This document shows, piece by piece, positions 1,437 to 1,859 of a DNA stretch of 5,809 nucleotides. The translations under genes were made by a program, and so were the position numbers. The notes under the pieces were generated by a model. It did not search any database. It saw nothing but the letters and a program-made list of their open reading frames with translations, and was not told the origin of the DNA. Position 1 is the stretch's first letter. Every line of letters begins with the position of its first letter. The stretch comes from a virus (lineage: Duplodnaviria; Heunggongvirae; Uroviricota; Caudoviricetes). Location of the stretch: the IMG/VR virus record IMGVR_UViG_2531839233_000007. One strand, 5' to 3'.

Positions 1437-1859
1437 TCACAACAGCACCTTCTGAAAATTACCCTGATAGAAAGCCAGTACACGCTGCATAGCTTCGCTC
1501 TTCCGGCACTCGCTACAGATTATGTTCAGACGCCTGTCGTAGCGGCGTATTTCTCCGTCTGGTAATGACCAGATAAGATCCGGATCAACCACAACCGGTT
1601 TCTTCACCTTTGCCCTTGATAGTTTTTTGCGGGCGTTTTGCCAGTCTTTACGCGCCTGCTCAGACGGGAATAATCCGTAGCCTGAATTGTAAACATCACC
1701 ACTGGCGACCAGTTCTCTGGCGAGAGTGCTTATGTAATACCTTGATGCACCGGTTTTAGCCTCCAGAGCCCGTAACGTCTCGCGACCGCTCAGACGTACA
1801 AGTTCAACAACCTGCCCTTTAATTTTTTCCCGCTCTTCTGGTGTAAATACTTTTGCCAT
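1437..1859 (-). CDS. Ren-like protein (lambda Ren family candidate), 140 aa
   Basis: Internal ATG 1859..1857 of the 145-aa track ORF, GGAGG 4 nt upstream. C-terminal motif CSECRKSEAMQRVLAFY resembles the lambda Ren C-terminus as I recall it (..ECRQSAAMKRVLAVY..); the N-terminal half has an HTH-like segment LEAKTGASRYYISTLAREL. Assignment from memory, unverified. Confidence 0.6.
   Translation of the reverse strand: MAKVFTPEEREKIKGQVVELVRLSGRETLRALEAKTGASRYYISTLARELVASGDVYNSGYGLFPSEQARKDWQNARKKLSRAKVKKPVVVDPDLIWSLPDGEIRRYDRRLNIICSECRKSEAMQRVLAFYQGNFQKVLL

Follow-up and report, generated by a model that had tools for sequence, protein, structure and literature searches.

The gene at positions 1437–1859 of the window, by which we mean the whole stretch of 5,809 nucleotides of viral DNA analysed here, encodes a small protein that shares its C-terminal end with lambda Ren. 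With a probability of roughly 0.7, we read this protein as DUF977/LygF, the Rac-type counterpart of Ren and an accessory of the replication module, in a Rac-like lambdoid prophage of Shiga-toxigenic E. coli. Its identity as DUF977 and its homology to Ren are assigned from sequence with high confidence. The firm part of the homology, as profile alignment firmly shows, is limited to the C-terminal ~24 residues. We conclude from these comparisons that the protein is a homologue of Ren by module and a counterpart by position, not an orthologue. The gene lies within the following arrangement:

1437..1859, minus strand: DUF977/LygF gene, 140 amino acids, RefSeq WP_001141110.1 (open reading frame, Pfam, PHROG)
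1865..1869, minus strand: Shine-Dalgarno sequence GGAGG, 5 nt before the DUF977 ATG at 1859 (read from the sequence)
1875..2636, minus strand: DUF1627 (YdaW) gene, 253 amino acids (Pfam PF07789, phrog_630, RefSeq CDS)
2659..3405, minus strand: DnaC-like helicase loader, YdaV (NCBIfam NF009043, phrog_50)
3412..4200, minus strand: YdaU-like replication initiator (phrog_2509, E 3e-88; NCBIfam match to the DnaT tail)
4278–4700, minus strand: YdaT/cII-like gene (Pfam, PHROG and NCBIfam scans)
about 4697–4951, minus strand: cro-like helix-turn-helix gene (Pfam, PHROG and NCBIfam scans)
5031–5450, plus strand, divergent: DicA-like repressor (Pfam, PHROG and NCBIfam scans)

The open reading frame of DUF977 starts with the ATG at 1859 and ends with the stop codon at 1437–1439 on the minus strand. 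Only 15 nt separate this ATG from the stop codon of DUF1627 (1875–1877), and this gap holds the gene's own Shine-Dalgarno sequence. The order repressor, cro-like gene, YdaT, YdaU, YdaV, DUF1627 and DUF977 shows that DUF977 is the last replication-block gene in a rightward early operon; in the direction of transcription, DUF1627 and DUF977 are followed by several small ORFs. The helicase loader YdaV is recognized by NCBIfam NF009043 with 508.7 bits (cutoff 389) and by the DnaC equivalog with an E-value of 6.6e-91. The part of the window from 1437 to 2687 is 100% identical to the chromosomes of many Shiga-toxigenic E. coli. For one of these 100% identical chromosomes, NZ_AP018802, RefSeq annotates the CDSs of the DnaC-like, DUF1627 and DUF977 proteins at identical coordinates. 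There, the genes lie within a Rac-like prophage that carries recET, ralR, kilR, sieB and ydaF on the left side and methyltransferases, Q-like genes and tRNAs on the right.

Two further observations concern the annotation around this block. The region 869–1086 (minus strand) appears as split ORFs in the window and is a frameshifted DUF4014 pseudogene according to RefSeq in an identical chromosome (L005, 8433–8650). The start of the cro-like gene is inconsistent, with 84 aa in RefSeq and 108 aa in the mechanically called ORF (minus-strand starts at 4951 and 5023, respectively).

By its sequence, the gene is an ordinary and already catalogued member of the DUF977/LygF family and is not new. The protein matches Pfam PF06163 (DUF977) with 98.2 bits (cutoff 22.1) and an E-value of 5.3e-28, and the alignment runs end to end, from residues 1–136 of the protein to positions 1–134 of the 134 of the model. 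It also matches PHROG 142, 'Ren-like exclusion protein', with an E-value of 1.5e-45 (residues 1–138 on positions 1–114 of 116). Lambda Ren matches the same PHROG with an E-value of 1.6e-41, whereas Pfam DUF977 leaves lambda Ren unmatched even at E-values up to 1. A second PHROG, phrog_2391 ('DNA binding protein'), is matched by the DUF977 protein with an E-value of 2e-5. The NCBIfam scan assigns no family to the DUF977 protein, and the PADLOC models of anti-phage defence match neither this protein nor lambda Ren at E-values up to 0.1. Compared with the DUF977/LygF proteins known from Rac-like prophages and from the Sdf (lygA-F) region of Salmonella Enteritidis, the protein agrees in its length of ~140 aa, in its C-terminal motif and in its genomic slot. 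There is no difference of note, as this copy is 100% identical to that in many STEC chromosomes.

The family is common in E. coli and narrow in sequence space. Among 5.8 billion proteins searched, 875 homologues are found; the 120 of these that are listed share 86–96% identity, and every named one is DUF977. Of 1.84 billion cluster representatives searched exhaustively with HMMER, only 102 match, from which we derive the narrowness of the family. Phage records list the gene under the names LygF, DUF977 family protein or 'Ren-like exclusion protein' (NC_029120, NC_025434, HannyBb). The DUF977 gene matches 3,924 of the 5,426 complete E. coli genomes (about 72%), with up to six copies per genome, and lambda-type ren matches 2,873 of the same 5,426. 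DUF977 is thus more widespread than Ren in E. coli genomes.

Three regions can be delineated in the protein from the family alignment and an AlphaFold2 model:

1668..1841, minus strand, codons 7–64: predicted winged helix-turn-helix, three helices and a beta hairpin (AlphaFold2)
1530..1661, minus strand, codons 67–110: long helix (67–85) and basic linker, with no counterpart in lambda Ren (AlphaFold2, hhalign)
1458..1529, minus strand, codons 111–134: conserved 'Ren motif' (DUF977 alignment, BLASTP, hhalign)

The C-terminal motif follows the pattern N-x-[IV]-C-x-E-C-R-x-S-x-x-M-x-R-[VI]-L-A-F-Y, of which CSECRKSEAMQRVLAFY comprises residues 115–131 (nt 1467–1517). Columns N112, C115, E117, C118, R119, S121, M124, R126 and F130, scored on 12 diverse DUF977 proteins with identities down to 31%, are invariant, and all of them are present in the protein of the window. 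In a BLASTP comparison with lambda Ren (NC_001416), residues 112–131 align with Ren residues 73–92 (NIICSECRKSEAMQRVLAFY and NLVFKECRQSAAMKRVLAVY, respectively), and no other segment is aligned. The match comprises 12 identical and 16 positive positions out of 20 at a pairwise E-value of 9e-7. The motif match to lambda Ren given in the first-pass annotation is therefore real and lies above chance. Within the invariant C-x-E-C of DUF977, lambda Ren carries Phe in place of the first Cys. Since this first Cys of the C-x-x-C is lacking in lambda Ren, the chemistry of the motif may differ between the two families.

Profile comparisons define how far the homology reaches. We compared an alignment of 12 diverse full-length DUF977 proteins (A1) with an alignment of 12 Ren-family proteins (A2). 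In hhalign, the two align with 97.7% probability and an E-value of 2e-12, co-linear over Ren 8–96 with a gap in Ren opposite DUF977 residues ~67–110. For the C-terminal pieces alone, the E-value is 1.1e-14 across 24 columns. Taken by themselves, the N-terminal pieces align in register as helix-turn-helix regions over 44 co-linear columns at 18% identity, but without significance (P 0.0024, 12% probability), and crossed controls give no signal. The same partition is seen in reciprocal HMM searches when lambda Ren is scored against the HMM profile from A1, where 24.4 of 28.5 bits stem from the motif and 3.1 bits from a weak, co-linear match in the helix-turn-helix region. The N-terminal similarity between DUF977 and Ren is no better than that between DUF977 and the second winged helix of DUF1627 (P 4e-4).

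Conservation of the motif is found at the protein level. When the DUF977 gene is compared with lambda ren over 22 codons of the motif, 15 agree at the first, 17 at the second and 9 at the third position, and only 5 of the 12 identical residues use the identical codon. As third codon positions have diverged, the motif is selected as protein and not as DNA, and a conserved DNA element is rejected by this analysis. In principle, a short motif could match Ren by chance, or the resemblance could stem from a nucleic-acid element (DNA or RNA) conserved at the gene's 3' end, given that pairwise similarity is limited to 20 residues and that Pfam DUF977 leaves lambda Ren unmatched. We regard this explanation as extremely improbable. 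Beside the pairwise E-value, both proteins match one PHROG at E-values below 1e-40, and the 105-nt spacer 3' of DUF977 contains neither a tR2-like, intrinsic terminator nor a structured RNA (fold z-score +1.3). The motif-alone hhalign comparison together with the codon-position analysis effectively refutes it.

Lambda Ren (96 aa, PHROG 142) and the DUF977 protein are alike in their small size, in a gene that closes the replication block of the pR operon, in an HTH-like N-terminal part and in the C-terminal motif N-x-[IV]-x-x-E-C-R-x-S-x-x-M-x-R-V-L-A-x-Y. The differences are of several kinds. With 140 aa, the DUF977 protein is 44 residues longer than Ren, owing to the extra helix and the linker. 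The lambda ren gene overlaps P and travels with lambda O/P, whereas the DUF977 gene has its own Shine-Dalgarno sequence and follows DUF1627. Its replication partner is a module of a YdaU (DnaT-like) and a DnaC-like protein instead of lambda O/P. The phenotype of Rex escape is so far documented for Ren alone. Pairwise and profile alignment with Ren, named as a check when the gene was first called Ren-like, are significant (BLASTP, hhalign and PHROG 142). The assignment holds in part. What stands is the homology of the C-terminal ~24 residues and the shared PHROG 142; what does not stand is an identity with Ren, because the homology is firm only at the C-terminus, the protein is longer, lambda Ren has no match to DUF977, the replication module is another one and DUF977/LygF forms a separate family. 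'Ren-like' is a fair label for the C-terminal module and the genomic slot.

Some Ren and DUF977 sequences are mosaic around the motif. Four Ren proteins (P0138, P0152, P0171 and P0177) end in the DUF977-type ...VLAFYRGNFQ and not in the lambda-type ...VLAVYGVKR; by sequence, these look like recombination or mosaic joints inside the motif common to Ren and DUF977. In three further proteins (P0303, P0320 and P0341), the N-terminus of an O-like initiator, the N-terminus of a DnaC-like protein or part of DUF1627 is fused to the C-terminal motif of DUF977. These fusion or deletion derivatives are probably decayed prophages or assembly chimeras.

The AlphaFold2 model of the DUF977 protein, calculated with alignment A1, has a mean pLDDT of 79. 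In the predicted architecture, the N-terminal winged helix is followed by a long helix and a flexible basic linker, which leads to the ~24-residue C-terminal motif. The winged helix, with a three-helix bundle and a beta-hairpin wing, is modelled at pLDDT above 90; its elements are helices 7–24, 29–36 and 40–53 and strands 57–59 and 62–64, and pLDDT reaches 94–97 over residues 11–70. Over residues 81–110, pLDDT falls to 46–62, with the linker covering about 86–110, and two short C-terminal helices over the motif are predicted at pLDDT 60–77. Foldseek searches of BFVD and PDB return only generic winged helices (GntR, MntR, MarR, AraR) at a probability of about 1.0 and E-values of about 1e-2, and the PDB profile search yields only weak HTH matches to Z-alpha, MntR and Lrp (E 1e-3 to 1e-2). 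No specific structural relative of DUF977 is found in these searches. The model of a Ren-family protein has a mean pLDDT of 44 and is too poor for a comparison of folds.

A winged helix raises the question of whether the protein is an ordinary transcription factor for the downstream nin-like region or the late genes, with the motif as dimerisation helix. The predicted fold is confident and resembles the DNA-binding domains of GntR, MntR and MarR, the match to phrog_2391 points in the same direction, and winged helices are also present in the neighbouring DUF1627 protein. On the other hand, no operator-like repeats adjoin the DUF977 gene, and the only strong palindromes lie in or before the initiator gene. 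The motif is kept across two families whose N-terminal domains show no significant similarity, which fits a common partner better than a generic dimer interface, and the position of the gene is fixed at the end of several types of replication module. We therefore consider a plain transcription factor distinctly unlikely.

The 253-aa gene that the first-pass annotation had placed between the DnaC-like and the Ren-like gene is present at 1875–2636, with its own Shine-Dalgarno sequence GGGAGG before the ATG at 2636. The gene, described there as extra, is no oddity: it is DUF1627/YdaW, the usual neighbour of DUF977 (Pfam PF07789, E 4e-101, with additional weak HTH matches; phrog_630, E 4e-130). 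The DUF1627 protein contains two winged-helix-like regions, residues 4–46 and 84–133, in addition to the DUF1627 domain. The second of these weakly resembles the winged helix of DUF977 (hhalign P 4e-4; phrog_142 E 5.5e-4), and BLASTP of the DUF977 protein against the DUF1627 protein gives no match. From this resemblance, the two proteins may share an ancestral domain. DUF1627 differs from DUF977 in that it lacks the Ren motif, carries two HTH regions and has a separate C-terminal DUF1627 domain, and it occurs without DUF977 in PPompW-type phages. Its start is annotated inconsistently, with 253 aa in RefSeq (ATG 2636) and 270 aa in phage records (2687), where it overlaps the DnaC-like gene.

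The order DnaC-like, DUF1627, DUF977 recurs in vB_EcoS-666R9, in Rac of strain 442/2, in phiSTEC1589-Stx1c and in Shigella phage 75/02 Stx. In HannyBb and Tritos, and likewise in three E. coli prophages chosen along the ranking by identity, a single initiator gene precedes DUF977 by ~40 nt, and DnaC and DUF1627 are absent. Our synteny census comprises 72 DUF977 loci from IMG/VR and GTDB with at least 3.3 kb of upstream sequence. The GTDB genome scan contributed little diversity, since its 12 loci are nearly all from Escherichia/Shigella or from contaminant MAG contigs. DUF1627 lies immediately upstream of DUF977 in 53 of the 72 loci. In the other 19, DUF977 directly follows the replication genes (15 times the initiator and four times DnaC). 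In these 19 loci, DUF977 is thus the first gene after the replication module, as ren is in lambda; in the window, DUF1627 intervenes.

The replication modules adjoining the two families differ. An initiator ending in PPGF[RK]G lies upstream of DUF977 in 62 of 72 loci and upstream of Ren in none of 61, and lambda O and P are present at all 61 Ren loci and at none of the 72 DUF977 loci; these counts are indicative only, as the underlying census lists, the best 80 matches for each family, are redundant. Each family's tie to one type of replication module could be plain genetic linkage among redundant close relatives. The initiators beside DUF977 genes belong to at least three unrelated body types and have their last ~19 residues in common. 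Lambda O lacks the DnaT-like tail of these DUF977-linked initiators. In the window, the YdaU-like protein resembles E. coli DnaT in its residues 170–262, which align with the DnaT C-terminal domain (PDB 2ru8, E 2e-4; 9zbt, E 7e-4), and the alignment extends to the last residue, ...PDS.IPPGFRG. The protein ends in ...NTVSFPDSAIPPGFRG, and its tail of 19 codons is encoded by nt 3415–3471 on the minus strand. From the alignment with the DnaT C-terminal domain, we derive that the module consists of a DnaT-like initiator and a DnaC paralogue, unlike lambda O/P.

Several observations on these modules stand beside the main argument. The common initiator tail reads ...N(T/H)(V/I)S(E/F)PD(S/T)xIPPGFRG and equals the C-terminal tail of host DnaT (L004, L006, L007, L008, L010 and L012). 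A further type of module is composed of an O-like initiator, a small overlapping protein of 140–221 aa and DUF1627, as seen in phage PPompW_132418 (L009, 2971–4161) and in L013 (3516–4985); in 10 of the 72 DUF977 loci, this module lacks the DnaT-like tail. The window also carries a 21-nt palindrome, TGTAACGC-N5-GCGTTACA, in three copies at 3813–3837, 4020–4044 and 4212–4236. The copies are 76–100% identical, at spacings of 207 and 192 nt. The YdaU-like initiator gene contains two of them, and the third occupies the 77-nt gap immediately before the start codon of this gene. On sequence grounds, the palindromes are candidates for initiator-binding or origin sites, or for operators.

The phenotype of Ren in lambda is known from exclusion by Rex. 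Heteroimmune phages that are ren- grow poorly on Rex+ lysogens, and suppressors map to O and P (Toothman and Herskowitz 1980, as summarised in 10.1101/2021.04.19.439022). Thomason et al. (bioRxiv 10.1101/2021.04.19.439022) list, in their supplement, a yeast two-hybrid interaction between RexB and Ren and BACTH interactions of both RexA and RexB with Ren and O. P-lethality and replicative killing do not require Ren (PMC3640518), nor does plaque formation after polarity has been corrected (PMC10695390). For LygF, DUF977, DUF1627 or YdaW, no functional study surfaced in literature searches screened at the level of hit lists, where most matches for 'LygF' are fish lysozyme g genes.

Neither the window nor the 19-kb stretch that surrounds it in RefSeq contains rex genes, which leaves the classical Ren phenotype without an obvious target in cis. 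The protein might still be a true functional equivalent of Ren, whose C-terminal motif binds RexA/RexB and neutralises RexAB-type exclusion by other lambdoid prophages. This would agree with the motif common with Ren, with the PHROG label 'Ren-like exclusion protein' and with the binding of Ren to RexA and RexB in two-hybrid assays. The presence of ren in 2,873 of the 5,426 E. coli genomes suggests frequent lambda-like co-residents, this survey having covered the ren gene. The lack of rexAB in the window and in the flanks examined and the occurrence of DUF977 in as many as 3,924 of the 5,426 genomes speak against it. So does the association of DUF977 with another type of replication module, as this favours a role linked to replication over one specific to Rex. 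We consider a functional equivalence with Ren unlikely.

For the preferred reading of DUF977 as a replication-module accessory, we propose, with low confidence, the following mechanism by analogy with lambda. The DUF977 protein would be, like Ren, a small and non-essential accessory of the phage replication module. Its winged helix may provide module-specific binding, either to DNA or to the cognate initiator, while the C-terminal motif may contact a partner common to the Ren and DUF977 families. In lambda, the accessory role of Ren would become visible as relief of Rex exclusion. The likely benefit here would be that phage replication is shielded against the exclusion or abortive-infection systems that co-resident prophages carry, or that its initiation is fine-tuned. 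With no rex genes in the stretch, an anti-exclusion role would be aimed at other resident prophages, or the primary role would be in replication.

A more general version of this proposal would treat Ren and DUF977 as two versions of one modular accessory, in which a portable effector motif of ~24 residues is carried on interchangeable, initiator-matched winged helices and Rex escape is a side effect. The motif would then engage a partner common to all these phages, with Ren matched to lambda O/P and DUF977 matched to initiators with a DnaT-like C-terminal tail. We offer this as a tentative possibility that we would not favor at present.

The gene itself is of little discovery value. RefSeq annotates it as DUF977, phage records carry it as LygF or 'Ren-like exclusion protein', with some already labelling close relatives Ren-like, and about 72% of complete E. 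coli genomes contain it. What the analysis usefully adds is a calibrated meaning of 'Ren-like': the C-terminal module and the slot are in common, the N-terminal domain shows no significant similarity, and the replication partner differs. If the two families indeed represented one modular accessory, the DUF1627–DUF977 pair would serve a general function tied to replication in an elaborated, two-protein form.
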